Origin: a virus
Taxonomy: Duplodnaviria > Heunggongvirae > Uroviricota > Caudoviricetes
Virus record (IMG/VR): IMGVR_UViG_3300044984_001938
DNA length: 64,000 bases
Reading direction: 5' to 3' (one strand)
Part shown: in pieces, positions 1,613-62,939 of the stretch
How positions within the stretch are numbered: position 1 is the first letter of the stretch
How the letters are laid out: every line of letters starts with the position of its first letter
Position numbers and translations under genes: made by a program
Notes under the pieces: model-generated
What the model saw: the letters and a program-made list of their open reading frames with translations, nothing else
Told to the model about the DNA's origin: nothing
Database searches by the model: none

Positions 1613-2053
1613 TTAATTACACCAACTAGTTTTAGCTTCACCATAGTATTCTCGGGCAAAACCTTGACTAATTAACATTTGTCTAAGACTTTGTCCATTT
1701 AATATTACATCACCCAACACACGCCCGCCATACTTGTCCCAATCCATGAGAACAATTTGTCTTTTAGTTGCTACTTCAATTGCATGTTTAGTGAAGGCAG
1801 TTGCTGCTTGACCTCGTTGCTCCTCACTAGGACATTTTGCCCTGAAACCTTTTTCCGGTGTATCAACACCAAACACACGAATACTTAATTCTTTCTTTAA
1901 TGGATCAGGTAAGAACGGTGCGTGAAAGGCTACCGTATCACCATCAATAACCCTAGTTATTACAGCATCATATGTTACACCTTCTTTTTGTTTTTGTGCT
2001 AATACAACACTAGATAGTATTGTCAATGCTAATAATATTATTATTTTTTTCAT
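1613..2053 (-). CDS. Thermonuclease (SNase-like) with signal peptide
   Basis: VIDGDT, IRVFGVDTPE, DKYGGRVLG motifs; N-terminal MKKIIILLALTILSSVVLA signal peptide. Confidence 0.9.
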   Translation of the reverse strand: MKKIIILLALTILSSVVLAQKQKEGVTYDAVITRVIDGDTVAFHAPFLPDPLKKELSIRVFGVDTPEKGFRAKCPSEEQRGQAATAFTKHAIEVATKRQIVLMDWDKYGGRVLGDVILNGQSLRQMLISQGFAREYYGEAKTSWCN

Positions 2054-3426
2054 GTTGATTTAATGCGTTTCTTGTAATCTATAAAGTTTGCGTGTCTATC
2101 TTCTAATCCTGATAGTGAAGAATTAATTTTCTTAGTAACTGCGGCAGTATCATCAAAGTTATTTATCCCCGGTTTAACTCTTGTGTTCCAATACCACAGT
2201 GCTACCTTTAACGCTATGTCAGGCCTTGCTGCAAGTTCAGGTTGTTTGAGTAAGTTTATCTTCAAGGCGTCACCTGCCATACGATAGTTGTCACGACCGG
2301 TCAATTGAATATATCCTCTGCCGTGATATCTAGCACCATCTCCCACTTGTTTATTACCAAGTATCTTAGCAGTTCTGGGTGAATGTTTAACATCGTATTT
2401 TTTAGCAAAATAATCTTTTACCTTTGGTTGTGGCTTTTCTTGTAACCTACTAAAATTCCAAGTTTCATGTTTCGTCTGAGCTAAAAATTGTGCTAATTCT
2501 GATCCCTTCATTCCTTCTTTTTTTGCAGTTTGATATAAAACATTTTCTGCTTGTGTATCTACTGTGGGAGATGCTGCTTTAACTACGGGTGTTGCTGCTT
2601 TAACTTGTACTTCAGGAGCAGCATCGGGTTGAGTTATTTTAGATATTTTAGCTGTTCTAACTGGTTCTACCGGAGAATTATATTGATTAGCAGCACCTAA
2701 TGCTCCCAATGCCATAGCACCACCAGCGACCCAGTTCTTCCAATCTTCTTCTAAATCATCTAGTTCAACTAATTGTCTATATGGCTCATCACCGGTCCAT
2801 CTTGAACCCTGATCCATTGCTTCGCCGACTGCTGGATCCCACTTCATGCTCTTACTACCCTTGTGTATAGGAGCGAAGCCTTGCCCCTTGTAGAACTTTG
2901 TTAGTTTACTTTGACTTACTTGACCGTGTTGCCAAGGGAACAATGTTAGTGCAATTCCATCTGCTTGTGCCATGGCTTGCAATTCTTTCATTGCGCGTGA
3001 GCCGACCCCTTGACGTAGTGGATATGCTTGAAACCATTTTACTTCTACTGCACCTCGTTTGCTGAAACTTGGGGTTAGTTCAAACATTGCAAGCTGCTGA
3101 GTGTCACCTTCGCCCCACATCATTACATGATTATTTTTAAAGATAGTTGGATACTTTTGATAGACCTTTTCAATCCAAGCCTTTGCGGCATCGTTGTTGC
3201 TTATTTTGATTGGTTCATCTTCCTTCATTAATTTACTAATGCGAGGCTTGAATAACTGTACTTCACCTTTGTTAGTTTTTAGTACAGGTTGATTGTGCTT
3301 GTCTTTAGTAAAGCCTTTAATCTCTGCTGGACTATTCTTAAATTTACCCTTGAGGATTTTATCACCAACTGATAACTTGGGCGGTTGATATGAGGCAGTC
3401 TCATTAATAAATTCAATTGCTCTCAT
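2050..3426 (-). CDS. Multi-domain virion cargo protein: GNAT-like domain plus C-terminal GH19 chitinase/lysozyme
   Basis: RQGVGSRAM and LTKFYKGQGF (GNAT motifs A/B); HET...E and YHGRGYIQLTGRDNY (GH19); N-terminus MRAIEFINE. Confidence 0.75.
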   Translation of the reverse strand: MRAIEFINETASYQPPKLSVGDKILKGKFKNSPAEIKGFTKDKHNQPVLKTNKGEVQLFKPRISKLMKEDEPIKISNNDAAKAWIEKVYQKYPTIFKNNHVMMWGEGDTQQLAMFELTPSFSKRGAVEVKWFQAYPLRQGVGSRAMKELQAMAQADGIALTLFPWQHGQVSQSKLTKFYKGQGFAPIHKGSKSMKWDPAVGEAMDQGSRWTGDEPYRQLVELDDLEEDWKNWVAGGAMALGALGAANQYNSPVEPVRTAKISKITQPDAAPEVQVKAATPVVKAASPTVDTQAENVLYQTAKKEGMKGSELAQFLAQTKHETWNFSRLQEKPQPKVKDYFAKKYDVKHSPRTAKILGNKQVGDGARYHGRGYIQLTGRDNYRMAGDALKINLLKQPELAARPDIALKVALWYWNTRVKPGINNFDDTAAVTKKINSSLSGLEDRHANFIDYKKRIKST

Positions 3427-3868: not shown

Positions 3869-5020
3869 TTATCCTTTAGTTTTCTTTGTGTTGACATTGA
3901 TGGCTTTACCACTACGCTCTGGATTGGGATCTTCTCTGCGTTTTCTTGCTGCTGCACTTGCACGACCCTTTTTACCTAAACTGTGTGCTTTACTTTGAGG
4001 CAAACATTTTGGTTTACCTTCTCCCGGCTCTCTTGCACATGGACCCTTGATATTACCTTTGGTATCCATGCGAACCCACTTTTCTTTATTAAACCAATCA
4101 TGTAAACTTTCATCCGTTTGATTTATGCCTTCTAGTATAGAACTTTCATTCTTACTACTATTACCCCAATTACTTGCACCTTTTTTACGACATTTGACTA
4201 ATGCACCGCTAGCATAGGCACTTGGCCATACTTTATAACGGCTTTTTACTTTATAGTAGCAAGCATCTTTCTTTTCATTCATTATCATTTCACTGAACAT
4301 TGGTCCATTACAGTGTGGGCAACTATGTTGTTCCTCCGCCACACCTTGTTCTTTTTGACCTTGCTGTTGCGCCCATTGAGCAATTTTTCCAAAGAGTGTA
4401 TCAGGAACACCGAGGTCTGTAGCAGCCTTTGGATCGCTAATATCAACTACGTTAATAGTTCTATCAGCAAGTGGACCGCTTGATTGAATAGGGCCACCTG
4501 ATGCAATCGTTGCGGCACCTGTGTATTTTTTTTCTGGATCATTTAGTCTTTGATCTAATCCCAATTGTTTAGCAACATTAGGAGCCACTGGTTTTATGTC
4601 AATAAATGATGCTGAGTTACTTGCAGTAGATAAATTTTGGTTGCGGCGCCAACTGGCTGCAACGTATGTGCCATTGGCTAATCTAACATAAGTGGTCACT
4701 GGAGCAAAGATATCTAATTCATTTAACTTGTCCTCCGACACACCTTGTTCGGTTGTTAGTGTACCAGTGCGTCTTTGTCCGGAACCTTTGAACATATCAT
4801 TTGTTTCTTCATATGTTCCTGGATAAGGTATACCAACTGATTCTTTCTTAACATCATTTGCAAATTGTTTATTAGTTGCTTTTACAATGCCACTAAAACG
4901 CTTGTTGCCACGAGCAAAATCTTTTTCTTTATCTGCTTTACTGGCATCGGCTGCGGCAGCAGTTTTGTATTGTGCTAACTTTTCGTTAGATAGTTCTGTT
5001 AAAAAATCTGATGGTTTCAT
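3869..5020 (-). CDS. Modular internal-head polyprotein (small basic modules separated by EQGV[AS]E sites)
   Basis: N-terminus MKPSDFLTE; EQGVSE and EQGVAE linkers; KKDACYYKVKSRYKVWPSAYASGALVKCRKKG and LHDWFNKEKWV..KPKCLP small modules. Confidence 0.6.
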   Translation of the reverse strand: MKPSDFLTELSNEKLAQYKTAAAADASKADKEKDFARGNKRFSGIVKATNKQFANDVKKESVGIPYPGTYEETNDMFKGSGQRRTGTLTTEQGVSEDKLNELDIFAPVTTYVRLANGTYVAASWRRNQNLSTASNSASFIDIKPVAPNVAKQLGLDQRLNDPEKKYTGAATIASGGPIQSSGPLADRTINVVDISDPKAATDLGVPDTLFGKIAQWAQQQGQKEQGVAEEQHSCPHCNGPMFSEMIMNEKKDACYYKVKSRYKVWPSAYASGALVKCRKKGASNWGNSSKNESSILEGINQTDESLHDWFNKEKWVRMDTKGNIKGPCAREPGEGKPKCLPQSKAHSLGKKGRASAAARKRREDPNPERSGKAINVNTKKTKG

Positions 5021-6936
5021 ATTATTTCTTATTCTTGTTATCTAACATGCCGCGTTTGTTAGCAGTTGCCCAAGCAATGTTCTTAGCGACTTTCTTTGAC
5101 TTGCCTGCCTTTTCTTCACTCTTTTCAATATGACTAACCATACGATCTACTTTGGCACCTTCACTAACTTTTTTCTTAGCAGCATCCCATGCAGCATCAG
5201 TCTTTACATTGTATTCTTTACCACCGGCGCCAATATCAGCAATTTCGTCCTTGTCGAAATTTGGATATCTGGACCAGCGGGTGGAAGGTGTGTATCCTTT
5301 ACGGCATAATTTCATCTCTGCGTTAGCTTGTTTGTCTGACATATAGGGACTTGGAGAGCTGCCTTCCGCCACATCTTTCTCTGGTTCTGTTGGTTTGGGT
5401 TTCTTTCTGGGACTATCTAACCAAGGATACTTGGAGCCTTCCGCTACATCTTGTGTTGCATACTTGGCGTACACCTTGCTATTTTCACCATAGCCATGTC
5501 TCCTAGCCATTTGTTGTAATTGCGCTTGGGTCTTGCCTTTGAAGTATTCTTTCTTTTCAGCATCGGTCATCAGGCGAATTTTTTCTTTGACACGAATTAC
5601 TGATGCTGGCATAGCACCTTCTGCTATATTTTTATCTTGTAACCGTTTTTCTGCACGATTCAATCCAACACTTCTCATTGAAAATTTATGACCTGCTTTA
5701 TTTGCAGATTTTGGGTCATTGTCTCTTATACCTTTACCAATAGTGGTAAATTGTTTATCTTGATCTTTCTCCGCTTTGTCATAGTAAGAAGTAACAGTGT
5801 CTCTATTCAATTCATCTAACTGGCCTTCTGACACACCTTGCTCCGGAGGTATAAAGTCTTCCAAATCCATACTAGAAAATCCTATAAAATCGTTTTGACT
5901 TCCGTGTGCCGCATTTTGTTTAATTTCTTGTACATACCGATCGGCACCTTCTGACAGATCACCGGCATCAAGTCCATCAATTGGATACATTACATATTGT
6001 TTATCTCCACGATGAAACGACACTGCATAGGAGTTACTGTCGGCCACGGCATAAATTTCAATAATGTATTTTCCGTCGTCGCTTTCAAAGTCTTCCTGAA
6101 AGAAAAATCTATCTCCCTGACCGTCTTTACGCTCAGGTGGTGCTAACTCGTTCAATCCTTTCGAGCCTTTCGCCACACCTTGCTCATTAAATCTTGTATC
6201 ATGTTTCATTGCAAGTGCATCATTTGTCCGCGGATCGTCAATGAACTTTAATTCGTAATCAGGATGCTTCATTATCTGTTGATTGATATCATATGCTTTA
6301 GTGTGATGCTGCTGAGCCTTTTCTTTGTTACCTCTCTTTAGATATGTTCTTGACAAGTAAGTGTGATGTTGATATTTTGATTTCAAATCATCTAATGATT
6401 CATTAAAGCCTTCCGCCACACCTTGCTCTGTATGACTTAAAATATTATTTTTAGGAACACGATATTTTGCCACAGTCTTTTCGGTGTTTCTTGGGCTTGG
6501 ATCAACTGATTTAACAATAAGATGCCCGTCTTTCCAACCAACTATGGTGCCTTCAATTTCAGGATAATGATTGCTGTGATACCAAGTAATCTTATCACCG
6601 GGATCGTAACCTTCCGCCACATCTTTCTCTGGTTCTGGTTTCTTTCTGGGACTATCTAACCAAGGATACTTGGAGCCTTCTGACACACCTTTCTCTGGTT
6701 CTGTTGGTTTGGGGTTGGGGTTCTTTCTGGGATTATCTAACCAAGGATACTTGGAGCCTTCCTCCACATCTTTTGGTGTTACTCTATCGATACCTTTTTC
6801 TCTCCGTGAAATCATGCGTTGAGCAATGTCTTTATATTCACCTTTTTTAGCATCTGGGGTAAGTCCTTTAACTTGTGCTTTTGCTTTTTCTAAATAACTT
6901 GCTTTAGTAGCATCACTAACCTCCGCGACACCTTGC
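4332..6936 (-). repeat. Dispersed ~20-nt in-frame repeat, minus-strand consensus GAGCAAGGTGTGGCGGAAGG
   Basis: Plus-strand copies start near 4333, 4732, 5362, 5437, 5824, 6166, 6409, 6610, 6676, 6757 and 6920 (e.g. ccttccgccacaccttgctc at 6409-6428). Confidence 0.85.
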
Positions 6937-7391
6937 ATCTCTTGGCTGCTGATTAGATAATCCATAACACTAACCATCATGCTTTTTGCTGCGCCAATCT
7001 TCTCTGATACCCACTCTGGGAATTCAGATTGAACAGATAATCTCTCGTCTAAATCACTGGCAGCACGGGCGATAGTGTGTAAACTGTTCTTTAATGTGTG
7101 GCCTTCATGTTCACCTTGATCTAAATCATGTTTAACAAATCCGGTTCTTTTTAATCTGCCTTGTCCAGGAACAACAATTAAGTCTTGTTCTGAAAGATCA
7201 TCTTCAGTGACTTTGCTTTCTACAATGCTATTAGCGTAAGGACCTTTCTTTTTAGATTTGCCCTTTATTAATTGTTGTACTGGTTTTAGTCCACGAACAT
7301 TAGTATTTTCGCGGGTTTGAGTCATCATAGGCTGTGCTACGGTGGCAACCGATCCTGCTGTTGTATTTTCTACTATTTGATTAAATCTCAT
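5022..7391 (-). CDS. Cassette-type polyprotein, about 13 modules joined by (EQG/EKD/EKG)V[AS]E-G linkers
   Basis: N-terminus MRFNQIVE; at least 11 recurrences of the V/I-x-E linker; three copies of the GSKYPWLDxPRK module. Confidence 0.65.
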   Translation of the reverse strand: MRFNQIVENTTAGSVATVAQPMMTQTRENTNVRGLKPVQQLIKGKSKKKGPYANSIVESKVTEDDLSEQDLIVVPGQGRLKRTGFVKHDLDQGEHEGHTLKNSLHTIARAASDLDERLSVQSEFPEWVSEKIGAAKSMMVSVMDYLISSQEMQGVAEVSDATKASYLEKAKAQVKGLTPDAKKGEYKDIAQRMISRREKGIDRVTPKDVEEGSKYPWLDNPRKNPNPKPTEPEKGVSEGSKYPWLDSPRKKPEPEKDVAEGYDPGDKITWYHSNHYPEIEGTIVGWKDGHLIVKSVDPSPRNTEKTVAKYRVPKNNILSHTEQGVAEGFNESLDDLKSKYQHHTYLSRTYLKRGNKEKAQQHHTKAYDINQQIMKHPDYELKFIDDPRTNDALAMKHDTRFNEQGVAKGSKGLNELAPPERKDGQGDRFFFQEDFESDDGKYIIEIYAVADSNSYAVSFHRGDKQYVMYPIDGLDAGDLSEGADRYVQEIKQNAAHGSQNDFIGFSSMDLEDFIPPEQGVSEGQLDELNRDTVTSYYDKAEKDQDKQFTTIGKGIRDNDPKSANKAGHKFSMRSVGLNRAEKRLQDKNIAEGAMPASVIRVKEKIRLMTDAEKKEYFKGKTQAQLQQMARRHGYGENSKVYAKYATQDVAEGSKYPWLDSPRKKPKPTEPEKDVAEGSSPSPYMSDKQANAEMKLCRKGYTPSTRWSRYPNFDKDEIADIGAGGKEYNVKTDAAWDAAKKKVSEGAKVDRMVSHIEKSEEKAGKSKKVAKNIAWATANKRGMLDNKNKK

Positions 7392-7443
7392 GCTGGTTTC
7401 CCAAAGTTATAGAGTATTTATCAAAATACCATAATATGGAAAC

Positions 7444-8769
7444 TTAAGAGATTTTTCCGTTTGTAGGGGCAGTTTTTGGTACACCGCTTCTTTTTATTTT
7501 ACCTAACCCTAGTCTCGTAGAGTTGTCCTGAATGCTATACGGATTCACATCCACGGTTAGTGCGGTCTTAAATCGTGGATCATTTTTTTCTGACTCGGAA
7601 GGAATGTAACCACTTGCTTCACTTATTCCACCACGATATTGATTGTCTTTACGCCCACCGTATGGATTTATTGCTGAAGTCTTTTCACTGGCAAATTGCA
7701 TAGTGTAATTTTCACCGACATTATATGTAGGATCAACTTTCTGTCTAGGCATACCTTTAGGTTGTTTTGGATCAACTGGATCAATATCTGTTGTTGTTAA
7801 TCCAGTCTTTTTTAGTGCATCAATATACTTATGTTCTTCATCTTCACTTCCAAACGCCAGTATGGTACTAGGTGGTCCTTTACCAAAATCATGCTTTCCT
7901 AATCCTTTAAGATTGCTAATATGTTGACCTAACTTATACCAATCATATACATCACTAACATCTACTTTAACAGTACCTGCGGGCATCGTTGGTTTAAACT
8001 CTGGTCCAGGAGGAGGACCATTTGGATCATAATCTTCGTCTGTGACATTACGATACATAGTTTCAAACGATAACTTCTCACTATGTAACTTGTTTCTTAA
8101 ATCATACAACTTTGTAATATATCCCTGGCTACGCAACATCTTAAATGCTAAATTCTCAGGTGAAAATTCACCCCCTTTATCTAACCCTGCTTGTCTATAT
8201 CTTTTGATTGTATCTAATATATGTTTTACTCTGCTGTACTTTCTTGATTTGAGGGCAATCTCCATTACAGCTAATAACTTTTCATACTTACTTTTAGTGG
8301 CAGTTTGGTCAAAATCACTTCTACGCTTAGTGGGTATTCTTATCCACTGGTCATTAATTATACTATATTCACCTAAACTTACTACAGGTTCTCTACTGTC
8401 TTGTACATACAATTCTACTGGAATTTTATGAATTGTTATATCATGGGAATCATTGTAAATTGTTTTCTTTGCATTGAATAACTCTTTATATACTTCATCT
8501 ATAGGCAAATTGCCCATGTCTACTAATATATGCAAATCTAAATCACTGTGCTTTGTGTAACTAAATGCAGCATTACTGCCTGATATGGTGATGTCTTTTA
8601 CATCTAAATCATGTACCCCTAATTCCGATAAAAAGTCTTGTGCTATCTTTATAAGTTGTTCTCTAACTTCTGACCGTAGTTTAGTACCGTTCCATAACTT
8701 TGGATTAAGTTTGTCGTGGAATGTAACTGCATCACTTAGTTTAAAACTGTTTAATTCTTTTAGGTTCAT
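7444..8769 (-). CDS. Pol beta-superfamily nucleotidyltransferase with C-terminal small modules
   Basis: ISGSNAAFSYTKHSDLDLHILVD (GS..DxD) and third acidic strand VELYVQD. Confidence 0.75.
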   Translation of the reverse strand: MNLKELNSFKLSDAVTFHDKLNPKLWNGTKLRSEVREQLIKIAQDFLSELGVHDLDVKDITISGSNAAFSYTKHSDLDLHILVDMGNLPIDEVYKELFNAKKTIYNDSHDITIHKIPVELYVQDSREPVVSLGEYSIINDQWIRIPTKRRSDFDQTATKSKYEKLLAVMEIALKSRKYSRVKHILDTIKRYRQAGLDKGGEFSPENLAFKMLRSQGYITKLYDLRNKLHSEKLSFETMYRNVTDEDYDPNGPPPGPEFKPTMPAGTVKVDVSDVYDWYKLGQHISNLKGLGKHDFGKGPPSTILAFGSEDEEHKYIDALKKTGLTTTDIDPVDPKQPKGMPRQKVDPTYNVGENYTMQFASEKTSAINPYGGRKDNQYRGGISEASGYIPSESEKNDPRFKTALTVDVNPYSIQDNSTRLGLGKIKRSGVPKTAPTNGKIS

Positions 8770-25594: not shown

Positions 25595-28072
25595 TTAGTA
25601 TTGAGTTTCATCTGGTAAAATAGTTGCACGAGGGAACAATACAAAGAAATCTTGACTATTGATTGGGTTTGGTACTGGAGTAGCACTAGGTAAACTAGAC
25701 CATGCAGGTGGATTAAAATCATTTTCCCAATTATAAGTAGTACTCTTATCTACTGTAAATCTATCTATATTGAAATTAATCTGATTAAGAGTATATGGCC
25801 AGTTAGTTTCTATATTCGTTTTAATAGTTTCAGCTTGGCCTGGTTTTGTATAGCATATTACCCATGCTTGAGTATAGCCCAAAGTACTACCATTTGTTTG
25901 TTGACTAGTCATCCATACTGGCAATAGTGTGCTGTTTAATACTTGTCCCAGGATATCAGCTACTCTATTACGCATGTTAAATAAACTGTTAGGGTATAGC
26001 GTTCTAGCATATCCGGAAGTCAAACTAGTAAAGTATTGTTGATTTAACAATTCAACATAGCTAGTGAATATATCGGTTACACTTGTGTACCAAGGTCCCA
26101 AATGTAAATCAATTGGAGTTGGCCAATATATACTACTAGGAACACTAACCCCTTGGGGATTTATCAAATTATCAATTACTTCACTGTATACTACTTCATA
26201 AATTATATTATTATTGTTATCTCTTGCAATAGCAGTTTTTAGCTCACCTAAAGTGATATTTCTCCAGTAATGATTTTGTGTGACTGATGCTATATATTCT
26301 TGTAGACCACTTGCATATATACCATATGCATGGTCGTATATGACATTGGTTGCTTTTCCAAAATTAACATCATCTGATCTGTATAATAATTCAGTAGGTA
26401 TTAGTGCTTCACTGTCTAACAATGTTCGTAGTATATTTCTATCGTTAATGCTAGGGGCCGCTTGAATATATAATATATCAGTAGGTTGCCCATATTCTTG
26501 ATATACATTTACGGTAAATGTTTTGCTAGATTCTACAATAGCAAAGTTTGACGAGTATGCTTGAATTGTAAATGTAAAAGCAGTTTGTTCACCAACATTT
26601 AAAAAAGTATTTGTTGGTTGACTAGCTACAATACCTGTTATTTCACCGCTGGGTAATAATGTTAAATTCGGAGGTAAACTACCTGAAGTTAATCTATACT
26701 CTAATGGGGTGTCCGAAACTGCAAGGACTTTTAATATGCTAAGAGTGTCGTTATATATTGTACCTAAATCTTGTAGTGTGACCCAAGATATTGTACCAGT
26801 GATATCCAAACTTAGATTGAATGCAAAATTAAACACCGGAGACACTATTCCAGTATTACCTGCTCTTACTACTTGTGCAGTAAAACTATAGTTATTAATA
26901 CCCGGTGATGACAAAATAGGAGTTCCTGTTATCCAACCTGTGGTAGAATCATGTGCTATTCCCTGCGGCAATCCAGAAACATAATAATTAATATCGTTGC
27001 CATCAAACTCATATCCAATTAATTTGAAAGCAAAGTAGTTATCACTTAAAAATGTACCTAATTGAGCATTCGTTGAAGTTGCTATCGGTGGCAATAAATA
27101 ATAACCATAATACGGATCACTATCATTTACTGTAATTGTCAATGGTCTAGTATTTAATAAAGTGGGCTGTCTTGTGTTAGGTGGGTTTCCAGGACCACCT
27201 TGACTTACAGGGGTGTTTTGATTTAAAACTGTAATTGAATAAGAAGCAGTTGCGTTACCCAAAGCACTTACTAGTGCCAATACAAAATTGTAAGTTCTAA
27301 TTATAGGTTGACCGGTAGAAATTGCAGGTAATGTAATATTCATCCCTCCTGCATCTTCACTCAATACAAAAGTACTTCCATTTTGGGTGGTAGATATAGT
27401 AAATGCAGTGTTAGTCGTATCAATAGTTTTTATATAATATGTTTGTCCTGCGATTATTCCACCTATAGGATCGGTAAATGTCACCGGTCTTCCAATAGTT
27501 ATACCTATAATTGATAAACAATAAATCAACGATGTAGATGATGTATTTAAACTAAATGCGGTTACTAAGGGTAATGTAACTATTGTTGTTGGTGGTTGTG
27601 GATAGCCCTGTATCAACCCTGATGTAGAAATTTCAAGACCCGGAGGCAATAGCCCCTGTTGTAACTCTATTAATACTATATTGTTTGGAACAGGATTAGA
27701 ATATTCTATTTGTATCTGTGTCCAAACACTATCTTGGGTAGTTAATATTACCCCACTTGGTGTAGTAATCTGTGGTGTAACAGCACCAGTAATCAACATA
27801 CTAAATGTTCTATCACGGATATTATTTAAATTATCTGTTGCTCTTACAGTGAATATAGTTAGTGTGTCAGATGTTACTATTGCAGGAATCCCGGATAATA
27901 CACCGGTATTAGTGTTTAGTACTATTGCGTTAGGTAATGATCCTGCTAAAACTTGATAGCTTACACTAGTAGCGGGGGCAACTGGTGTTGCCAATAATAC
28001 ATATGAAGTTGCATATCCATATGGATAACTTCCTATAGAGCCAGCAGGGGTATTCCAAATAGGCTGTGACAT
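25595..28072 (-). CDS. Baseplate-associated protein with putative Ig-like repeats
   Basis: Repeated GSLP.G/LPPG...GxIxGxP...FTI.A patterns. Confidence 0.6.
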   Translation of the reverse strand: MSQPIWNTPAGSIGSYPYGYATSYVLLATPVAPATSVSYQVLAGSLPNAIVLNTNTGVLSGIPAIVTSDTLTIFTVRATDNLNNIRDRTFSMLITGAVTPQITTPSGVILTTQDSVWTQIQIEYSNPVPNNIVLIELQQGLLPPGLEISTSGLIQGYPQPPTTIVTLPLVTAFSLNTSSTSLIYCLSIIGITIGRPVTFTDPIGGIIAGQTYYIKTIDTTNTAFTISTTQNGSTFVLSEDAGGMNITLPAISTGQPIIRTYNFVLALVSALGNATASYSITVLNQNTPVSQGGPGNPPNTRQPTLLNTRPLTITVNDSDPYYGYYLLPPIATSTNAQLGTFLSDNYFAFKLIGYEFDGNDINYYVSGLPQGIAHDSTTGWITGTPILSSPGINNYSFTAQVVRAGNTGIVSPVFNFAFNLSLDITGTISWVTLQDLGTIYNDTLSILKVLAVSDTPLEYRLTSGSLPPNLTLLPSGEITGIVASQPTNTFLNVGEQTAFTFTIQAYSSNFAIVESSKTFTVNVYQEYGQPTDILYIQAAPSINDRNILRTLLDSEALIPTELLYRSDDVNFGKATNVIYDHAYGIYASGLQEYIASVTQNHYWRNITLGELKTAIARDNNNNIIYEVVYSEVIDNLINPQGVSVPSSIYWPTPIDLHLGPWYTSVTDIFTSYVELLNQQYFTSLTSGYARTLYPNSLFNMRNRVADILGQVLNSTLLPVWMTSQQTNGSTLGYTQAWVICYTKPGQAETIKTNIETNWPYTLNQINFNIDRFTVDKSTTYNWENDFNPPAWSSLPSATPVPNPINSQDFFVLFPRATILPDETQY

Positions 28073-28073
28073 A

Positions 28074-28694
28074 TTATGCTGTTAAGTAATGCATCGCTAA
28101 TTCAAAGTGATGTTTTCTATCTGCTAACCCAATAGTACCACCGTTGATACGTTTAGTTAATGTAACAAAATCTCCACTATCACAATATTGATTTAATTTG
28201 TTATTTTCCCAGAACCATCCTGCACTTGCTACTGCACCGTTTGGTGTCTCTAAGTAAGCAACAGTATCTTCTAAACTCATACCCAAATCGTTGGCAAATT
28301 TAGTATAATTATCACGACCAGTTAATTGAATAAGTCCACGCCCGCGGAATTTATATCCATCACCGCTTGATTCATCCCCGTTTTTCATTCGGTTAGCATA
28401 AACACGATTAGCAATCTTTTCTGGCTTTTTTGCATATTGATTTGCCATGTCATCATTGGTAAAATATTTACCAAATGTACTGCGTAGTCCATTAGAACTA
28501 TAATTTAGATTTTCTTTAATGAAGTTATAACCACCGGATTCGTGTGCAGTTTGTGCTAGAAAGCCAGCCAATCTTGCTGGATTCACATTCATTTCATAGT
28601 ATTCAGCCACGGTGTTAAGTGGTTCAATATATCCCTCAAGAATACTTGATTTTGTGTGCGGACATATCTGCGTTAATAAATCTAAAGTTACCAT
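28074..28694 (-). CDS. GH19 chitinase-like endolysin (start reassigned to 28694)
   Basis: FLAQTAHESGG..ENLNY, GDGYKFRGRGLIQLTGRDNY, INGGTIGLADR. Confidence 0.9.
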   Translation of the reverse strand: MVTLDLLTQICPHTKSSILEGYIEPLNTVAEYYEMNVNPARLAGFLAQTAHESGGYNFIKENLNYSSNGLRSTFGKYFTNDDMANQYAKKPEKIANRVYANRMKNGDESSGDGYKFRGRGLIQLTGRDNYTKFANDLGMSLEDTVAYLETPNGAVASAGWFWENNKLNQYCDSGDFVTLTKRINGGTIGLADRKHHFELAMHYLTA

Positions 28695-28823
28695 TTTTTT
28701 TCCTAATATGCGTATGCCTACCAGAATCTGCTTATGTCGCCGTAACCGACTACACAAGACTGTGGGGTGCTGCCCTCTGCTAGAAGGCCGAAAACCCCAC
28801 GGTTTTTGATTTCAGGTAATTTT

Positions 28824-28979
28824 TTACTCCGCGGGTACAGATGCGTCCTTGGCTTGCTCTTGGATCCCCTGAATCAATACAACAACGTCTTGGTAGGGGC
28901 GTGTGGCCAGATACTGCAAGATGCCGTTGATCAAGTTTAAAGATAGTTCAATTTTTTTGTCGTTCATTTTAATTTCCAT
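28824..28979 (-). CDS. Small tail-fibre-adjacent protein (51 aa), not in ORF track
   Basis: MEIKMNDKKIELSLNLINGILQYLATRPYQDVVVLIQGIQEQAKDASVPAE*. Confidence 0.65.
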   Translation of the reverse strand: MEIKMNDKKIELSLNLINGILQYLATRPYQDVVVLIQGIQEQAKDASVPAE

Positions 28980-29070
28980 TTATGTTTTGTTACCTAAGAT
29001 ACGCCGGATGCGACCCCAGGAATTTTACAATGTTGTCACATATATTTATGCCGCCGCAAATTACACATAA

Positions 29071-34263
<5,193 letters not shown>

Positions 34264-34347: not shown

Positions 34348-37296
34348 TTATAGACCGCTTAATTTCATGTAGTCTTTTAACAACTCAGTGGATTCTTTCA
34401 TAGGATTACCTAAGCCATCAGCACCCATGCGATTCTTTTGCCCTGAGATTACTGGGATAGTTGTTTGACCGGTAGATTTTTGTTTATTCAATCCACCACT
34501 TATAACATTCATCATAAATCCAATGTCAGCTTCAAATGTATCATCTGCACTGTTAGCGTATGATTCTTCTATTGAACTAGTATCCTTTTTTACATCAGAC
34601 AAGTGGGCATCAATGCCAGCTGTACTTTTAAGTCCCCATTTCTGAGCAGCTTTTTGTGCTGCTTGATAACTACTACTTGCTTTAACTTCGCACTTACCTT
34701 TTTTAGCATGTACACAAATAAAAGGTCTTTCTTCTGATTCTTCTACTTTAGTTGATTCTTCTGAAAGCATTGCTATTTTTCTGAAAAGATTAGTGAAACT
34801 TGATTCTGACATTGTTTCGCATTTGCAAGGATTGCAATCACATTTTTTGCAATTGTTATCTTCATCTAATGCGTCTGTGCCGGCTTCTTCACCTGTTTCA
34901 TCTTCAGCTTCGTTAGTTGGGCTTGAATATACTTCACCTTCTTCTTCGTCTGCACCTGCATCTGCCGTTGCCAATGCACTATTAGCTGCTGCATTCCCTG
35001 CAACATCAGCATTGGTATTATCAGCACCGGAATCTGGGGCATTTGCTTCAGATACATCATCAGTCATTTGATCTTCTGATTCATCTTCGCCCATAACTGG
35101 TTGTTCATCGGATTCACATTGATGATTCTCTTCCATCATGTCGCCACATGACTCGCATGTTTCTGCCTCATGCCCATGATCTTCTTCACTGGAACCTTCT
35201 TCATCTTCATAGTCACCGTCATCTGTCATTTCTCCGCCGCCAGTGCCTGACAATTTCTTCATCAATGACATCATACCGTCATGGTCATCAACTACGCTGA
35301 TACCACCGTGAGCACCTGCTGAGCCTTGTGGTGCATTGAAACCTTGTTCTTCACCTCCAAATAAGCCTAAACCTGCTGATTTAATTATAGATAACAATTG
35401 GTCAGCTTCACCATCTTGTGCTGATACTGACACTGAATCAGGTGATCCTTGTTGACCTTTACTGATTGAAACTGTCATTCCTTCAGATACATTTTCTTCA
35501 CTTTTCACATTGGCTTTGAATTCAGCCTTAGTTTTACCGTATTTCTTTTTGAATTCTGCGTCAGTTAACTCTTTAAAATCCAATGATAGTTCATTCATTC
35601 TACCTTCATTAACATTTTCAAGTAAAGAATTTAATTGCTTATCTAATGATTCAAAAGCAAATTCATCTAAAACATTGTTATCACGCATTGTTTGTCCAAA
35701 TGCTTTGAAAGTGTTACCGGGCGTTGTAATTGCTTGTTGCTTCATGTAAGAAGTCTTATCCATCTCATCTACTTCACCCATGCCTTGCTCGTTAAATATA
35801 TCTCGGGCGAATGATACTATCCGATCATACATTTCTTCAAACAACATAGGATCAAATACTCCACCGTTTGATTCTACATATTTTTTAACTGCGGCCATTA
35901 CTCTTGGTTTTCTACTTGGACTCATATAGCGGCGATTATTATCAATCATGTCTTGGATAATATCCATATAATCATCTTCACCAAACATATCTATATCACC
36001 TTTACCCATGCCTTCATCCATTACATCATGTGCGCCATAACTAGCCATTGTGCCAACTTCAGGTCCTTGACCCATTTCACCAATTGCAGTGAGACCTAGT
36101 ATTGGCATTTGACCATAGCACTCATCTAAGCCTTCTTTGAACCCGTCGTGATAGTGTCTTGCTTCTTCCATATCATCGTTTGTGCAATTGTATGGCATTT
36201 TTCTTAGTGCATGGCTTTTACCTTGAAGTCTTGCAGCTTGTAAATTATGTTCCATGCCTTCTTTAACTTTCTTTTTATCTTTGACAGCTTTCTTCATTGG
36301 CTCTTTCTTATTACCGTCTTTATCTATATCTAGAAAGTCTGGTTTGGCAGATTTCTTAGCAAAAGGATTAACACCTTTCTTAGGTGCGTTCCCTTTCTTC
36401 TCATCCTTTTCTATATCTTTGGTAACTTTTTTTCCAATCTTTTCAGCCTTGTCATCTTTCTTGACAAAAGGATTTACACCTTTCTTGCCTTCTAATACAC
36501 CGCGATTAGCAGTGCTTAGTGGACTTGATTGTGCAAAGTACTGTGGAGCTTCAGCCTCATGCATCTTGCTTAATGTCGTAGCAAGTTGTGCTTGCTTTTC
36601 TGTCTTAGCAGGATAATCTTCTTTGTGTGCTAAGACTTTTGCTCTGAATTGAGTAGGAGTCATACCGTGAGATTTTGCTTTTGTGGTGAAGGCGCCCGGA
36701 TGCTTAATAGCACCCTTGATCCAATTTTCACCATCTTCAGCCATTTGTTGATCAGGCATTAAAGTCAGTTCACCTTTACCAATAGATTGTTTAATCTGTT
36801 GTGCTAATTGAGCGTTGTCAACTGTACCTAGTGTCTTATCACCTTGTGCAATAACTTGTGTGTTCTTTTGTGGTTGACCTGCCATTTGTTGCTGTTGTCC
36901 GGGCTGTAGTGTTTGTCCGGGCTGCTTAGGCATTTGTGAAGCCGGTTTGATTTCAATTTGATCAGCTTCATTCAATGCTTGGGTTAATTGATCAAAGTAT
37001 TCTTTCAAACTATGCTTAGTAGTTTTACTTTTATCCCACTTGGGCAACTTAACATCTTTACCTGTTACACCAAATGCTGACCAATCAGGCTTGCTACCTG
37101 CAGGGGCTGCTTTTGGAGGACGACCTTTGCCACGCTTCACGGCAGGAGGTGCTTGCTTAACTGGGTTACCGTCAGCATCTTCATCGTCTTTACGACCGTA
37201 ACCACCTGGGTCAGCAGTGTGAACTTCACCTGTATCAGTAGTAGTTGTGGCTTCTGATAAATTGTCAAACGATTTTAATATATCTCTGAAATCCAT
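34348..37296 (-). CDS. Large acidic internal-head / prohead-core-like protein
   Basis: N-terminus MDFRDILKSFDNLSE; many L/V/M-x-E sites; alternating basic and very acidic low-complexity blocks. Confidence 0.55.
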   Translation of the reverse strand: MDFRDILKSFDNLSEATTTTDTGEVHTADPGGYGRKDDEDADGNPVKQAPPAVKRGKGRPPKAAPAGSKPDWSAFGVTGKDVKLPKWDKSKTTKHSLKEYFDQLTQALNEADQIEIKPASQMPKQPGQTLQPGQQQQMAGQPQKNTQVIAQGDKTLGTVDNAQLAQQIKQSIGKGELTLMPDQQMAEDGENWIKGAIKHPGAFTTKAKSHGMTPTQFRAKVLAHKEDYPAKTEKQAQLATTLSKMHEAEAPQYFAQSSPLSTANRGVLEGKKGVNPFVKKDDKAEKIGKKVTKDIEKDEKKGNAPKKGVNPFAKKSAKPDFLDIDKDGNKKEPMKKAVKDKKKVKEGMEHNLQAARLQGKSHALRKMPYNCTNDDMEEARHYHDGFKEGLDECYGQMPILGLTAIGEMGQGPEVGTMASYGAHDVMDEGMGKGDIDMFGEDDYMDIIQDMIDNNRRYMSPSRKPRVMAAVKKYVESNGGVFDPMLFEEMYDRIVSFARDIFNEQGMGEVDEMDKTSYMKQQAITTPGNTFKAFGQTMRDNNVLDEFAFESLDKQLNSLLENVNEGRMNELSLDFKELTDAEFKKKYGKTKAEFKANVKSEENVSEGMTVSISKGQQGSPDSVSVSAQDGEADQLLSIIKSAGLGLFGGEEQGFNAPQGSAGAHGGISVVDDHDGMMSLMKKLSGTGGGEMTDDGDYEDEEGSSEEDHGHEAETCESCGDMMEENHQCESDEQPVMGEDESEDQMTDDVSEANAPDSGADNTNADVAGNAAANSALATADAGADEEEGEVYSSPTNEAEDETGEEAGTDALDEDNNCKKCDCNPCKCETMSESSFTNLFRKIAMLSEESTKVEESEERPFICVHAKKGKCEVKASSSYQAAQKAAQKWGLKSTAGIDAHLSDVKKDTSSIEESYANSADDTFEADIGFMMNVISGGLNKQKSTGQTTIPVISGQKNRMGADGLGNPMKESTELLKDYMKLSGL

Positions 37297-44962: not shown

Positions 44963-45907
44963 ATGAATATAAAAAGTACTGTTATCTATTGGATACATCT
45001 ACCGGAACACACTAATGCAGCTACCGACGGATATGTTGGAGTCTCTAAAGATTATGCCCGTAGGTTAAAAGGACATTTGAATGACATTAATAACAAGAAA
45101 CATAAAAATCCACATCTAATACATGCAGTTAGGAAATATGGATGGGACAATCTAATCAAAGATGTTATCTTATGCGGTGAAGAATCTTATTGCTATGAAA
45201 TGGAAGAAATACTAAGACCAAAAAAAGCAACTGGATGGAACATTGCTCCCGGTGGACATAGAGGACCAGGTTGGACAAAAGGCAGACCTAAAAGTAAAGA
45301 ATCCATCCAAAAACAAAAAGCGTCAATTGCACCTTTCAATGAAGCAAAACGACTTGAAAGAAACAAAAAAAGAGAAGAAAGATTGCATCAACGAGAACTA
45401 AACCGGCTATCCAAAATTCGTCAACTGGAAGAAAAAAATAAGGTCAAAGAAATTAAAAAATTAGAAAATGAAGAAAAAATAAAAAGGCGGGTCGGCGAGC
45501 GTGATAGAAGAAAACAAAAAGCAATAGACAACGGCACATACGGTTCAAAACCCAATTACAATAATCGGCCATTCTGCAATAAATGTAACAAGAATCACGC
45601 AGCAGTGAACTATAAACGTGCCGGTGTTACACATTACAGAAGCATATGTGATGAATGTAGTAGGAAGAAGCAGAAGCAAAAACCACAAAAAGCCAATTGG
45701 ACTAAGAGTGGTTATAAGAAAAAAGCCACATGTGATTTATGTGGCTTTAAGAGTTTATTCGTTACACAAATAACAGTATTTCATGTTGATGGGCACTTGG
45801 ATCACAATGAACAAACTAATCTACGCAGCATTTGCTTAAACTGCATAGAAGTTGTGAAAAAGAAAGAGATTACTTGGAGACGGGGAGACCTTGAGATTGA
45901 CTATTGA
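44963..45907 (+). CDS. GIY-YIG-like homing endonuclease fused to a C-terminal Zn-finger/HNH-like domain
   Basis: VIYWI..DGYVGVS..RRLKGH and GWNIAPGG at the N-terminus; CxxC pairs and FHVDG..N..NLRSICLNC at the C-terminus. Confidence 0.65.
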   Translation: MNIKSTVIYWIHLPEHTNAATDGYVGVSKDYARRLKGHLNDINNKKHKNPHLIHAVRKYGWDNLIKDVILCGEESYCYEMEEILRPKKATGWNIAPGGHRGPGWTKGRPKSKESIQKQKASIAPFNEAKRLERNKKREERLHQRELNRLSKIRQLEEKNKVKEIKKLENEEKIKRRVGERDRRKQKAIDNGTYGSKPNYNNRPFCNKCNKNHAAVNYKRAGVTHYRSICDECSRKKQKQKPQKANWTKSGYKKKATCDLCGFKSLFVTQITVFHVDGHLDHNEQTNLRSICLNCIEVVKKKEITWRRGDLEIDY

Positions 45908-54867: not shown

Positions 54868-56133
54868 TTATGCGCTAGCAATAGAAACTATTTCGTAAGG
54901 CTGAGCACCAACTGAGTTGGCTGCTGCTGCGGTGTTGAATGTAGCAAATATCGGAGTAGCATTTTGAAATACAATATTACCGGTGGCAACTGGACCAGAA
55001 GTAGCAGTAAACAACTCGCCAACGTGATCACTTAAACTTTGAACCGTTTGAGTAGCACTATTAGCATATGTAGCAAGAATCCGCATTGTATTAGGAGTCA
55101 ATGCGGTATTTGCAAGATTTGCAGTAAAGCACTGTGATGTTAATCCAGTAACTGTGCCTGTAACTAAATATTTTTGCTTACCCTTTTGACGAACAATGAA
55201 ACCTGCTTCATCATTTGCATAGACAAATGCGGCGCCTGTTGAGGCAACTGCGGCGTTTGCAACTAGTTCAACTACATCTTGTTGTGCATCAGGTGTGCCC
55301 GTAGCATTAGACAAATCAACTTCTGCTCCAGCCAATGTTTCTGAAACAGTAAGTGCAGTTGCGTTAGCAATTGCTTTAACAAAATAAACTTGACCAGATA
55401 CTAGACCACCCAAGTTAGCAGTAAATCTTACTGTACCATTAGCAAACAATGTCTGAGCATTACCGGTAGTACGAATGATGTTACCGGTGTTGTTTGTGTT
55501 AGCAACAGCAATTGCTGTGAAGCCACCAACGGTGTTAGCAAAACCTATCGTAGTATAATTTGTACTACCGTTGATGTTTGCGCTAGCAACTTGAATAGCA
55601 GAACCTACACTTAATGTGTTTGCCAAATCAGTACCAATACCAGTTACATAAGCGGTATTAGTTGCAGAGTACAATGTACCTGTACCATTAACACCAATAG
55701 CAACTTGTGCAAGTACTTGCTTACCGATAATAGCTGTATTACCACCTACTACGCTATATGTATTAGCATTTGTTGCGGGAAAACCAGTTCCACCAACTGG
55801 GTTATTGAAATATGCATCAACGACATTAAAAGATGCTTTAACCGTGCCTCCTGATGAATTAGTTAATGTAGCCATCACACGAGGTTGAACACTTAATTGT
55901 GTAGTTGAAACGCTGAATGTAGTGTTTGATAAAATAGTATCAACATAATATATTGTGTTGGCTACTAAACCACTAATGCTTGATGCAGGTACAAATGACA
56001 TACCGTTAGCTACACCTACTGTAGGGGTTGTAGTTAGATTTCCACCTGAAATTGTAACGATACTGCCTGTTGTTGCTGTATTTGTGATTGTTAAGACTGC
56101 TTGAGCCTTTGCGATTTTTAGAGGGCGTCCCAT
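54868..56133 (-). CDS. Structural protein (Ala/Thr/Asn-rich beta repeats)
   Basis: MGRPLK N-terminus; GFIVRQKGKQKYLV motif; strong AGGAG RBS. Confidence 0.65.
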   Translation of the reverse strand: MGRPLKIAKAQAVLTITNTATTGSIVTISGGNLTTTPTVGVANGMSFVPASSISGLVANTIYYVDTILSNTTFSVSTTQLSVQPRVMATLTNSSGGTVKASFNVVDAYFNNPVGGTGFPATNANTYSVVGGNTAIIGKQVLAQVAIGVNGTGTLYSATNTAYVTGIGTDLANTLSVGSAIQVASANINGSTNYTTIGFANTVGGFTAIAVANTNNTGNIIRTTGNAQTLFANGTVRFTANLGGLVSGQVYFVKAIANATALTVSETLAGAEVDLSNATGTPDAQQDVVELVANAAVASTGAAFVYANDEAGFIVRQKGKQKYLVTGTVTGLTSQCFTANLANTALTPNTMRILATYANSATQTVQSLSDHVGELFTATSGPVATGNIVFQNATPIFATFNTAAAANSVGAQPYEIVSIASA

Positions 56134-56239
56134 TTTGATTTCTCCTATTATGGGTTGCGGGTTCTAGCCGCCGTTAATGAGAACATTACGAAGCACCTTA
56201 TTATGCTATATCAATATATTTATCTTAAGGAGCTAAAAA

Positions 56240-56803
56240 TCAATAGTTGGGAAGTCCGGATGGGTTATTTCCAACTGGATTAACACCAGAGGTGCCGCTG
56301 TTTGGATGCGGCATACCCAATTCTGTAATAGAGAATATAGTGTTAGCTCCTGCTACGGTTAAGAAAGAAACAATGTTACCCTGCCCTACAATAATACTAT
56401 TATTTACAGTGTTTGCCGGAATGACTTCACTATTTGCAGTTGCCACTGTATAAGGCACACCGTAAGGATTATATCTTGCTGTAGTAGCTGATATTGCTAC
56501 AGCAGCATTTGCTGTTAGTGTTAAACTAGTGTTATTGGCAATTGATTTAACAATGCCAACTGTGTTTCCAGTAGTATTGCCAATCCAATAACCGATTCCT
56601 AATTCTGTTAAAAATAATGTTCCTGAGCCGGTTACTGTATTACTATTAGTAGCACATGTTACAGTTCCACTTAGTGCTACATTAGGGTAACTAGTAGTGT
56701 ATTGAATAGCTGCATTAGAAGTGGCTATTCTTACTTTATCGGTTGCAATGTTTGCCGAAGCTGCTGGTGTTGCAATGTTTGCTGTATATGCGTATGTTGT
56801 CAT
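56240..56803 (-). CDS. Structural protein
   Basis: Thr/Asn-rich; GTVTCATNSNTVTGSGTLF fibre-like repeat. Confidence 0.6.
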   Translation of the reverse strand: MTTYAYTANIATPAASANIATDKVRIATSNAAIQYTTSYPNVALSGTVTCATNSNTVTGSGTLFLTELGIGYWIGNTTGNTVGIVKSIANNTSLTLTANAAVAISATTARYNPYGVPYTVATANSEVIPANTVNNSIIVGQGNIVSFLTVAGANTIFSITELGMPHPNSGTSGVNPVGNNPSGLPNY

Positions 56804-56895
56804 TTTTATTCCTATATCTTATTTATTGTTAAAGTCTGCCAACTGCAACTTCAATAATGCTTTCGCCACGGTGATAAACGATATTTCGTTGGCAA

Positions 56896-57180
56896 TCACT
56901 TGGGGTACCTCAATTTAACGTCTAGGCACGCAGCGATGTAAGCCTGCACCTGAGCCGCGTCACCCTTAACGATCCCATCGAGGTAGTCCGTGGCGTCGGG
57001 GTAGGCTGCACGGCGGAGTTCTTGGTACGTGGCAACCGGCGGTGGATCGGCGGGCTCTGGTGTGTTTCCCTCTGCTACCCACGCAAGGTATCGCTGGTAG
57101 TCGGAGTTTGCGGGGTCTGTCGGAATGTAAGCCCTGTCAGAGAGCCGGATGACGGCAGTTGTGTTGGTTAGTTTGTACAT
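56896..57180 (-). CDS. Tail fibre assembly chaperone-like protein
   Basis: [27 protein letters not shown] and RRAAYP..VKLRYPK motifs; GC-rich like the adjoining fibre tip. Confidence 0.7.
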
Positions 57181-57189
57181 GATAGCCTT

Positions 57190-61974: not shown

Positions 61975-62189
61975 CTAAAGGAATTTTGTGTAGTATTGTT
62001 CTACTCGTTTGAACCACACGTCACTATACTTGTCAAATTCATTACCTTCAATGATGAATTCCTGATAAACATTGTCTTTGGTACACATAAAGATAACACC
62101 TTTGCGTATTTTAGTACCATGAACTTCATGTAGTATTGTTCTACCCGCTTAAACCACATGTCACTATATTTGTCAAATTCATTACCTTC
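61975..62189 (-). pseudogene. Orphan duplicated 3' ends of the exonuclease gene
   Basis: 62130->61975 reads HEVHGTKIRKGVIFMCTKDNVYQEFIIEGNEFDKYSDVWFKRVEQYYTKFL*; 62189->62129 reads EGNEFDKYSDMWFKRVEQY; compare the C-terminus of 62940..63626. Confidence 0.85.
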
Positions 62190-62869: not shown

Positions 62870-62939
62870 GCTGATTGCTCCTTGTAGCATTAGAGTGAGT
62901 GGGGATTGCAGTCCCGCGACTCACACTTATTTATCAAAA

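Follow-up and report, generated by a model that had tools for sequence, protein, structure and literature searches.

A 20-nucleotide in-frame joint for module exchange in two putative cargo polyproteins of a T4-type jumbo phage

Introduction

Why should a phage string together protein segments that are mostly unrelated to each other, and keep the DNA that joins them nearly the same from one joint to the next? The question is raised by two adjacent open reading frames (ORFs), ORF A and ORF B, in a 64,000-nucleotide (nt) stretch of DNA (IMG/VR record IMGVR_UViG_3300044984_001938; hereafter the window) from a large uncultured myovirus with a G+C content of about 38%. Both genes are punctuated by copies of a 20-nt element, (A/G)AG CAA GGT GTG GCG GAA GGC, which encodes (E/K)QGVAEG and is called the joint here. 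An initial annotation of the sequence had proposed that this repeat serves both for the shuffling of modules and as a cleavage signal for a phage protease. The first proposal is borne out by comparison with related loci, cited here by their L numbers. The whole chain, in which the joint role is combined with capsid targeting and gp21-type cleavage of cargo polyproteins, is given a probability of roughly 0.55. All the public sequencing runs that contain the locus are lake-water metagenomes, and there are no RNA runs among them.

Organization of ORF A and ORF B

The two genes follow each other head to tail on the minus strand, a single base separating the stop of one from the start of the other (Table 1). 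Fourteen joints divide them into 12 modules in ORF A and four in ORF B, with lengths of 22–157 amino acids (aa). As initially annotated, the modules are mostly unrelated to each other: the only pairs alike are those formed by three Pro/Lys-rich SKYPWLD peptides (67–88% identity), no other pair matching at E<0.01. The sole domain match of the two proteins is DUF5872; searches of ORF A against Pfam and PHROG and of single modules against Pfam gave nothing over the cut-off. ORF B matches phrog_727 (2.5e-39), and its C-terminal module resembles gp114 of cyanophage Syn9 and proteins annotated as "T4-like structural protein", a likeness at the level of annotation only. The relatives of ORF A have in common roughly the first 153 residues and, at the other end, the final one or two modules, and the middles vary in length and content.

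Ten of the joints are clear copies of the element and four are degenerate. A six-frame scan of the window with the strict peptide x[QK][GD]V[AS][EK]x gives ten matches, all in ORF A and ORF B, and these clear copies occur nowhere else in the window. Searched as DNA with at most three mismatches, the consensus 20-mer has seven matches, all on the minus strand within 4332–6695, and none in 100 dinucleotide shuffles. A looser pattern detects 12 copies in the 1172 aa of the two proteins and one across the remaining ORFs of the window; when PKDVEEG, DKNIAEG, KKKVSEG and the decayed copy at residue 60 of ORF B are added, the number of joints is 14. The repeat first noted from the sequence is thus real, and so is its copy with a Glu-to-Lys change (joint 6, GAA to AAA), which is peculiar to this phage. 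L017 and L020 retain Glu at the position, so the change is recent and derived. The range originally assigned to the repeat, 4332–7391, does cover the joints (6938 down to 4331), but the element is specific to the two genes and not to the region.

The only joint-like site elsewhere in the window, EENVSEG, lies in a 982-aa protein among the tail genes (34348–37296, minus strand). Counterparts of this protein in L032 and L033 (start MDFRDLIQ) match residues 91–184 of ORF A, the conserved helical module of its N-terminal domain, at 41% identity.

Table 1. Positions of the two genes, their joints and associated features in the window.
Feature	Position	Strand	Remarks
ORF A	5022–7391	minus	789 aa: conserved N-terminal domain (aa 1–157), ten variable modules, conserved C-terminal tail (aa 745–789)
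ORF B	3869–5020	minus	383 aa: conserved N-terminal module (aa 1–60), two variable modules, C-terminal DUF5872 and basic tail
Joint 1, MQGVAEV	6918–6938	minus	Closes conserved N-terminal domain
Joint 2, PKDVEEG	6756–6776	minus	Degenerate
Joint 3, EKGVSEG	6675–6695	minus	
Joint 4, EKDVAEG	6609–6629	minus	
Joint 5, EQGVAEG	6408–6428	minus	Perfect consensus
Joint 6, EQGVAKG	6165–6185	minus	P1 Glu to Lys
Joint 7, EQGVSEG	5823–5843	minus	
Joint 8, DKNIAEG	5616–5636	minus	Degenerate
Joint 9, TQDVAEG	5436–5456	minus	
Joint 10, EKDVAEG	5361–5381	minus	
Joint 11, KKKVSEG	5157–5177	minus	Degenerate; precedes conserved C-terminal tail
ORF B decayed joint, NDVKKES	4838–4858	minus	KKVEEG or KKVTE in relatives
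ORF B joint, EQGVSED	4730–4750	minus	
ORF B joint, EQGVAEE	4331–4351	minus	Precedes DUF5872 module
Three SKYPWLD modules	6678–6758, 6612–6677, 5364–5438 (span 5364–6758)	minus	22–27 aa, each flanked by joints
Capsid-targeting-like N-terminus of ORF A, MRFNQIVE	7368–7391	minus	
Capsid-targeting-like N-terminus of ORF B, MKPSDFLTE	4994–5020	minus	
T4-late-promoter-like box, GATAAATA	7415–7422	minus	31 nt upstream of ORF A
HExxH protein	439–1023	minus	194 aa; zinc-site signature VLHELTHV; capsid-targeting-like start MLTEHIIIE
GH19 lysozyme-type protein	2050–3426	minus	Capsid-targeting-like start MRAIEFINE
Carrier protein phrog_36119	7444–8769	minus	Relatives with different in-frame inserts, bounded by V-x-E joints

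Conservation of the joint at the nucleotide level

Codon usage was examined in 82 distinct copies of the joint from the window and 35 loci, which were found by protein similarity to ORF A, the motif not being used, and the rest of the same genes served as background. The Val codon is GTG in 76% of the copies as compared with 11.5% in the background, the Ala codon GCG in 90% as compared with 5%, and the last Gly codon GGC in 74% as compared with 19%. The same bias is seen in 46 independent copies with unrelated flanks, obtained by collapsing all copies that share either flank. Information content rises sharply across exactly 20 nt and is near zero on both sides. The synonymous conservation claimed for the repeat in an AT-rich genome is therefore confirmed, and a comparison of linker with module interiors, which had been suggested as a check, shows that the linker codons are far more conserved than composition predicts. 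A coding linker whose nucleotide sequence is conserved over divergent phages is in itself unusual as an evolutionary signal.

The element is widespread among viruses. Its exact 17-mer core is present in at least 119 IMG/VR viral contigs, some of them 300–374 kb long; among the matches listed, 160 of 161 copies are read in the same frame (CAA GGT GTG GCG GAA GG) and the open frames that hold the core have a median length of 498 aa. In 596 Gb of bacterial and archaeal genomes, by comparison, the 20-mer gives five single matches in GC-rich genomes, which we read as chance, and one in a phage-like contig of a metagenome-assembled genome (MAG). L173 (CAILDT010000116.1), a contig of 39% G+C in a Bacteroidetes MAG, contains a 510-aa open frame with four GVAE joints; as it is most likely a phage contig, its bin is a weak hint at a host at best.

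Conservation of this kind could also serve translation or the RNA itself, through a pause at the rare GTG-GCG-GGC, a Shine-Dalgarno-like AAGGTG or stepwise folding, in which case recombination would be a side effect. The codons xAG, GTG, GCG and GGC are indeed all rare, G/C-ending codons in an AT-rich genome, and one consensus extends over all phages instead of being homogenised genome by genome, as expected of direct selection. However, a pause does not need an exact 20-mer that includes the common codons CAA, GGT and GAA, the strand has no stable structure, and the pattern of breakpoints described below shows that recombination uses the site in any case. A role in translation is for these reasons a very unlikely explanation of the element.

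Exchange of modules at the joint

DNA homology between the window and eight relatives stops at 6933, 6430/6167, 5846/5640, 5638/5361, ~5157, ~4843, 4750 and ~4348, and every one of these positions is a joint. Homology to L001, L003, L004, L005, L009 and L021 ends at 6933–6934 (joint 1), and in six relatives it ends at 5151–5171 (joint 11). Between these, the stretches shared with L017 span joint 5 to joint 6 (6430–6167) and joint 8 to joint 10 (5638–5361), and the stretch shared with L020 (5846–5640) begins at joint 7. In ORF B, homology stops at 4842–4845 at the decayed joint, a stretch 98% identical to L017 begins exactly at 4750, the edge of EQGVSED, and homology to five relatives begins at 4324–4348 at EQGVAEE. 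At the protein level, BLASTP alignments have 57 distinct interior ends, of which 35 are no more than 6 aa away from a joint, where 9.1 ± 2.8 are expected; not one of 20,000 random placements reaches 35. An alignment of orthologous loci, proposed earlier as the way to check whether modules are added, deleted and shuffled at the repeat, thus places the breakpoints on the joint, and both order and content change there, within one gene as well as between carriers.

The closest relative illustrates the extent of the rearrangement. L017 matches the window at 99.8% identity on one side and 98% on the other; its module order is permuted and ORF A is fused to ORF B. It lacks one module of the window and contains ~1.2 kb of other modules, one of them with a ParB-like DGNHR motif as judged by eye. 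Two junctions of the L017 type recur in Logan contigs from two further lake metagenomes, with 71–199 nt on each side and 8–12 shared bases. A lake metagenome contig carries a 6408-to-6610 deletion joint at joint 4, with 12 nt shared, and a further metagenome joint (5613 to 5155) is located at joint 8; metagenome joints with less than 30 nt on one side were excluded. Modules also pass from one carrier to another. A module of L046, which belongs to a second polyprotein family (start MRFTEFISE), is present joint to joint with ~90% DNA identity in the carriers of L001 and L006, and cassettes are inserted in HExxH and NTase-like genes.

The 20-nt element is a DNA-level in-frame joint where modules exchange. 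Since the reading frame is the same throughout, synonymous positions are conserved and homology ends on the element, modules can be gained, lost, permuted and moved between carriers with the frame intact.

All related sequences are metagenome contigs, and they often end at the repeat: among the matches listed for IMG/VR loci L049–L128, 15 of 36 whole contigs have an end no further than 350 nt from it, as compared with 3 expected (P=7e-8). This invites the suspicion that the differences in modules are assembly chimeras formed at a short repeat. However, a 20-nt repeat is shorter than the k-mers used for final contigs (31 in Logan), and the L017-type order was obtained independently in L017 and L020 of IMG/VR and in contigs of two other runs. 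Moreover, the alternative modules are mostly novel sequence and not rearranged window sequence, and all junctions are in frame, which leaves chimeras scarcely credible. Contig ends at the repeat are what strain-level branching at this site would do to assemblies. Their accumulation at the 17-mer implies that such loci are systematically fragmented in assemblies and their diversity probably under-counted.

Mechanism of exchange

The array had been described at first as integron-like. As in integrons, unrelated cassettes lie between copies of a repeated site and vary in content and order; integron cassettes are promoterless genes, whereas those considered here are protein-coding segments fused in frame. 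An integron-like mechanism was ruled out, since five related genomes (up to 86% complete) contain no tyrosine recombinase of family PF00589, the control being positive in 14 of 14 cases, and the site offers no attC-type hairpin: the joint with its flanks has no dyad symmetry and a folding energy of –0.7 kcal/mol (z = +1.06). Recombination on short homology is known in T4-type phages. We infer that general or short-homology recombination at the G+C-rich joint, with no dedicated recombinase, is most likely the mechanism of exchange.

A more far-reaching proposal sees the joint as an actively maintained exchange site, perhaps with the help of a phage nuclease or annealing protein. A clade of jumbo phages from lakes and wetlands would then trade in-frame cassettes as a common pool, a population-level generator of diversity for capsid-delivered counter-defence proteins, and one peptide would act at once as linker, protease site and recombination joint. 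Taken as a whole, this is an unlikely scenario.

The joint as a putative protease site

In T4, the prohead protease gp21 cuts after Glu at L/I-x-E (PMC9026906). Conservation of the joint was scored position by position, each codon being evaluated in copies detected by the other six codons. Glu occupies P1 in 71 of 73 copies (97%) and P3 is Val, Leu or Met in 76 of 79 (96%), compared with 63–78% for the other positions, which agrees with the gp21 rule. The degenerate joints PKDVEEG, DKNIAEG and KKKVSEG have lost most of the DNA consensus and retain V/I-x-E. The enzyme itself is encoded by relatives: in four related genomes with homologues of ORF A, a Peptidase_S77 gene (~1e-29) adjoins a gp22-like scaffold gene and a Gp23 gene (~1e-99) in the T4 order, and the layout of protease, scaffold and capsid genes is the same in Pseudomonas phage PA5oct. 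In L036 the gp21 homologue lies at 1447–2079. G005, an 88-kb relative, has no Peptidase_S77 in its assembled part. The scaffold of the relatives contains LVAEG, and their capsid protein has LAE↓S ~40 residues before a conserved VQPM block, which we take to be the position of T4 gp23 maturation. Judged from these sequences, cleavage of the joints after Glu by a gp21-type prohead protease appears somewhat favoured.

Several observations weigh against the reading of ORF A and ORF B as cleaved cargo. Packaging and cleavage of the two proteins are predicted from sequence, and it is in genomes of relatives, and not in that of the window's own phage, that the protease and head genes were recognised. 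No cultured relative of ORF A was matched by tblastn among 50,697 phage records. [LIV]-x-E is not depleted inside the modules (observed/expected 1.44 as against 1.24 in controls), so that either many such sites are structurally protected or cleavage is no strong constraint. P4 Gly, P2 Ala and P5 Gln are more strongly conserved than the known requirements of gp21 call for, and their conservation is better explained by a constraint at the DNA level. The joints fall in low-confidence, unstructured regions of a single-sequence AlphaFold model of ORF A which, with a mean pLDDT (predicted local distance difference test) of 45.8, is fit to give only a coarse pattern of folded and unfolded parts; the evidence from structure that they are linkers is weak because of this low confidence. 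A complex prediction for the gp21 homologue of relative G001 with a 34-residue joint stretch of the same phage gave a score of 0.00, which is no answer and no evidence either way. Joints are only slightly more similar within genomes (0.754) than between them (0.733, P=0.037), a difference too small for local gene conversion to explain the nucleotide conservation; the shared consensus must be kept either by direct selection or by exchange over the whole phage pool. Finally, metagenome joints with 19–23 nt on one side were discounted, as the short side may be the repeat itself.

Some of these points would suit uncleaved, multidomain "polyvalent" proteins in which QGVAEG is a flexible linker fixed as a DNA joint, its fit to the protease rule being coincidental. 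Nucleotide conservation in excess of what the protein needs, the retention of P4, P2 and P5 and the undepleted [LIV]-x-E would all follow, and phage polyvalent proteins with 2–15 domains are known (PMC5512222). However, P1 and P3 are clearly better kept than the other positions, degenerate copies still hold V/I-x-E and the cargo inserts of other carriers have V-x-E at their borders, even those that lack the 20-mer. Modules of 22–27 aa, in addition, make poor sense as domains of an intact protein. An uncleaved linker is on balance doubtful.

A different cutter has also to be considered, namely the HExxH metallopeptidase encoded in the same island (Table 1), which could act on the joints in the capsid or after injection in place of the prohead protease, a role already proposed for the MPTase domain of polyvalent proteins. 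It combines a zinc-site signature with a capsid-targeting-like start, and its homologues lie ~10 kb or less from motif genes in 33 of 154 loci, the loci being short. In L050 (3346–5859) and L081 (1854–3947) the HExxH gene is split in frame by 500–700 aa of differing cassettes at QGVAEG joints, and the HExxH domain is there the C-terminal module of a joint-bearing polyprotein. Iyer et al. predict that such peptidases process polyvalent proteins (PMC5512222). Against this, the Pfam support is weak (WLM, E=0.0095, under the cut-off), most joint loci, short as they are, have no HExxH gene nearby, and cleavage after Glu with a hydrophobic P3 is a habit of gp21-type serine proteases and not of zincins (PMC9026906). 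The HExxH protein is accordingly an improbable cutter, and a gp21-type protease is retained in the model below.

Capsid targeting and a model of cargo delivery

The starts of ORF A, ORF B and three neighbours (MRAIEFINE, MKISALLE and MLTEHIIIE) share the pattern M-(K/R)-x-x-x-hydrophobic-hydrophobic-x-E. The N-termini of ORF A and ORF B resemble the capsid-targeting peptide of T4. Starts of this type are found in 37 of 101 motif ORFs (37%) and in 105 of 790 other ORFs of the same loci (13%), giving an odds ratio of 3.8 (P=5e-8). In T4 the capsid-targeting sequence comprises 10 residues, of which those at positions 4 and 7 target the protein and those at positions 8 and 10 direct its processing (PMC9026906). 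Capsid targeting of ORF A and ORF B is, on this evidence, probable.

The promoter-like box upstream of ORF A would suit late expression. GATAAATA, which appears to be the form that the T4 late promoter TATAAATA takes in this phage, is likewise positioned 24–33 nt upstream of tail tube, tail-fibre-like and virion structural genes. More widely, the box lies 24–45 nt upstream of ORFs starting at 7391, 34248, 41172, 47397, 51009, 61923 and others. A search with the late-promoter pattern WATAAATAC was uninformative and was replaced by the GATAAATA scan.

T4-type virion genes are present in the window and in its relatives, and the capsid protein of the relatives is nearest, at 65% identity, to those of Vibrio phage 2.275.O, PA5oct and Rak2-like phages, all of them jumbo phages within the T4 superfamily. 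In the model favoured here, ORF A and ORF B would be cargo polyproteins of a T4-type jumbo phage, each consisting of a targeting-like peptide and a conserved carrier module followed by a train of modules. They would be made late and enter the prohead by way of their N-terminus, and a gp21-type prohead protease would cut V-A-E↓G after its Glu. A single targeting signal could in this manner load many small free proteins, which would leave with the DNA at infection. The cassette domains of relatives, which include ParB_N, GNAT, GH19, deaminase, the RNA polymerase-binding SutA and LysM, suggest that some cassettes act on host defence or metabolism.

If the model holds, it amounts to a new solution to packaging: a whole train of small proteins would reach the prohead behind a single targeting signal, to be separated by the resident protease. 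With a fixed joint the train would also be easy to re-compose, which would explain a fast turnover of injected proteins in the face of host defences. The 20-mer, found in at least 119 contigs, would mark candidate injected effectors in metagenomes, their modules being mostly without assigned function, and the joint could supply a natural rule for designing T4-type capsids that carry several foreign proteins.

Relation to known systems

The nearest parallels are the T4 internal proteins IPI, IPII and IPIII and the Alt protein, which likewise start with a short N-terminal peptide ending in hydrophobic-x-Glu (PMC9026906, PMC3012670, PMC5694885). In both cases a diverse, fast-changing cargo stands behind a conserved targeting signal, and the relatives of the present phage have the gp21-type protease, scaffold and capsid protein; by analogy, delivery with the DNA would be the expected function here. 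However, every T4 cargo protein has its own gene and its own targeting peptide, with trimming at the ends (the N-terminus of the IPs, both ends of Alt), whereas here many cargos follow one N-terminus and a single protein can contain as many as 11 internal sites. Nor is the site simply the L/I-x-E of T4: it is a fixed element of seven residues and 20 nt.

In the giant phages phiKZ, 201phi2-1 and SPN3US, inner-body or ejection proteins of the head are similarly cut after Glu, some of them at multiple sites (PMC5694885, PMC9026906). Their motifs are S/A(/G)-x-E or A-x-E, and where a protein is cut several times, the effect is mostly to remove long propeptides; neither a conserved DNA joint nor an exchange of cassettes has been reported for them.

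Polyvalent proteins combine many unrelated domains in one polypeptide, are probably packaged in the capsid and are predicted to be processed into separate units (Iyer et al. 2017, PMC5512222). The 12 modules of ORF A and four of ORF B lie within their range of 2–15 unrelated domains per polypeptide in portal-terminase phages. Their repertoire is partly shared by the relatives studied here (ParB-like, GNAT, lysozyme and zincin-like peptidase; PMC5512222). Effector domains typical of polyvalent proteins are zincin-like peptidase, ParB-like, GNAT, lysozyme, ART and others; ORF A and ORF B themselves match only DUF5872, and ParB_N, GNAT, GH19, deaminase and HExxH occur in the cassettes of relatives. 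The word "linker" is absent from the text of the polyvalent paper, which ascribes processing to the proteins' own metallopeptidase domain (PMC5512222). The junction found here differs in being a conserved, mobile feature that fits a serine prohead protease.

Exchange at short conserved sequences has precedents in T4-type phages as well. In the gp38 adhesins of T-even phages, conserved glycine-rich motifs frame hypervariable segments that are exchanged by recombination (PMC3157838), and in promoter early stem-loop (PeSL) cassettes segments are exchanged at short conserved T4-type sequences (PMC2839356, PMC4122927). Coding motifs that frame variable segments and serve as exchange points are equally present here. 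The gp38 motifs, however, make up the structural core of one domain and their order is fixed, and PeSLs, promoter-terminator units located between genes, mobilise whole genes. Neither the fixed order nor the single-domain core is found in the present case, in which module order differs even between close relatives and the joint is coding, in frame and links independent modules in any order.

In the literature searched, no description was found of many cargos behind one N-terminus with an in-frame 20-nt joint as both a likely protease site and the exchange point. The earlier statement that this is not a described system stands to that extent, but its ingredients, namely T4 capsid targeting and gp21 processing, polyvalent proteins and gp38 shuffling, are known.

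Neighbouring genes and other features of the window

The gene upstream of ORF A encodes another carrier, phrog_36119. Its orthologues in L001 (3737–5083), L002 (3753–5948) and L003 (4104–5948) have a variable insert at the same point. The insert gives weak GNAT-family matches in L002, of which only Acetyltransf_1 is over its cut-off, and is a dCMP/cytidine deaminase in L003; the inserts of the window and of L001 have no assigned family. The L003-type deaminase occurs as a free-standing gene in L023. On the other side of the two genes, an SNase homologue (Pfam, 1.7e-10; 1613–2053, minus strand) with a signal-peptide-like N-terminus lies inside the island of putative cargo genes.

Elsewhere the window encodes a tail sheath, tail tube, head-tail adaptor, ClpA-like ATPase, GH19 lysin and Dps-like protein. 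G+C content reaches 0.47–0.53 at 28000–34000 and 56000–58000, as against 0.35–0.40, and the former covers a tail-fibre-like gene of 1725 aa (29071–34248). Putative GIY-YIG homing endonucleases, recognised by eye from their N-terminal sequences, are encoded at 44963–45907 (plus strand) and 62189–62890 (minus strand), one of the two being situated between tail genes on the opposite strand.

In the relatives, two proteins are encoded between the portal and protease genes (L036, 272–499 and 606–1433), one of 75 aa (start MKLFEMFNPAVEG) and a strongly acidic one of 275 aa. Their PA5oct counterparts have been detected in virions, and both are candidates for small core proteins processed by the protease.

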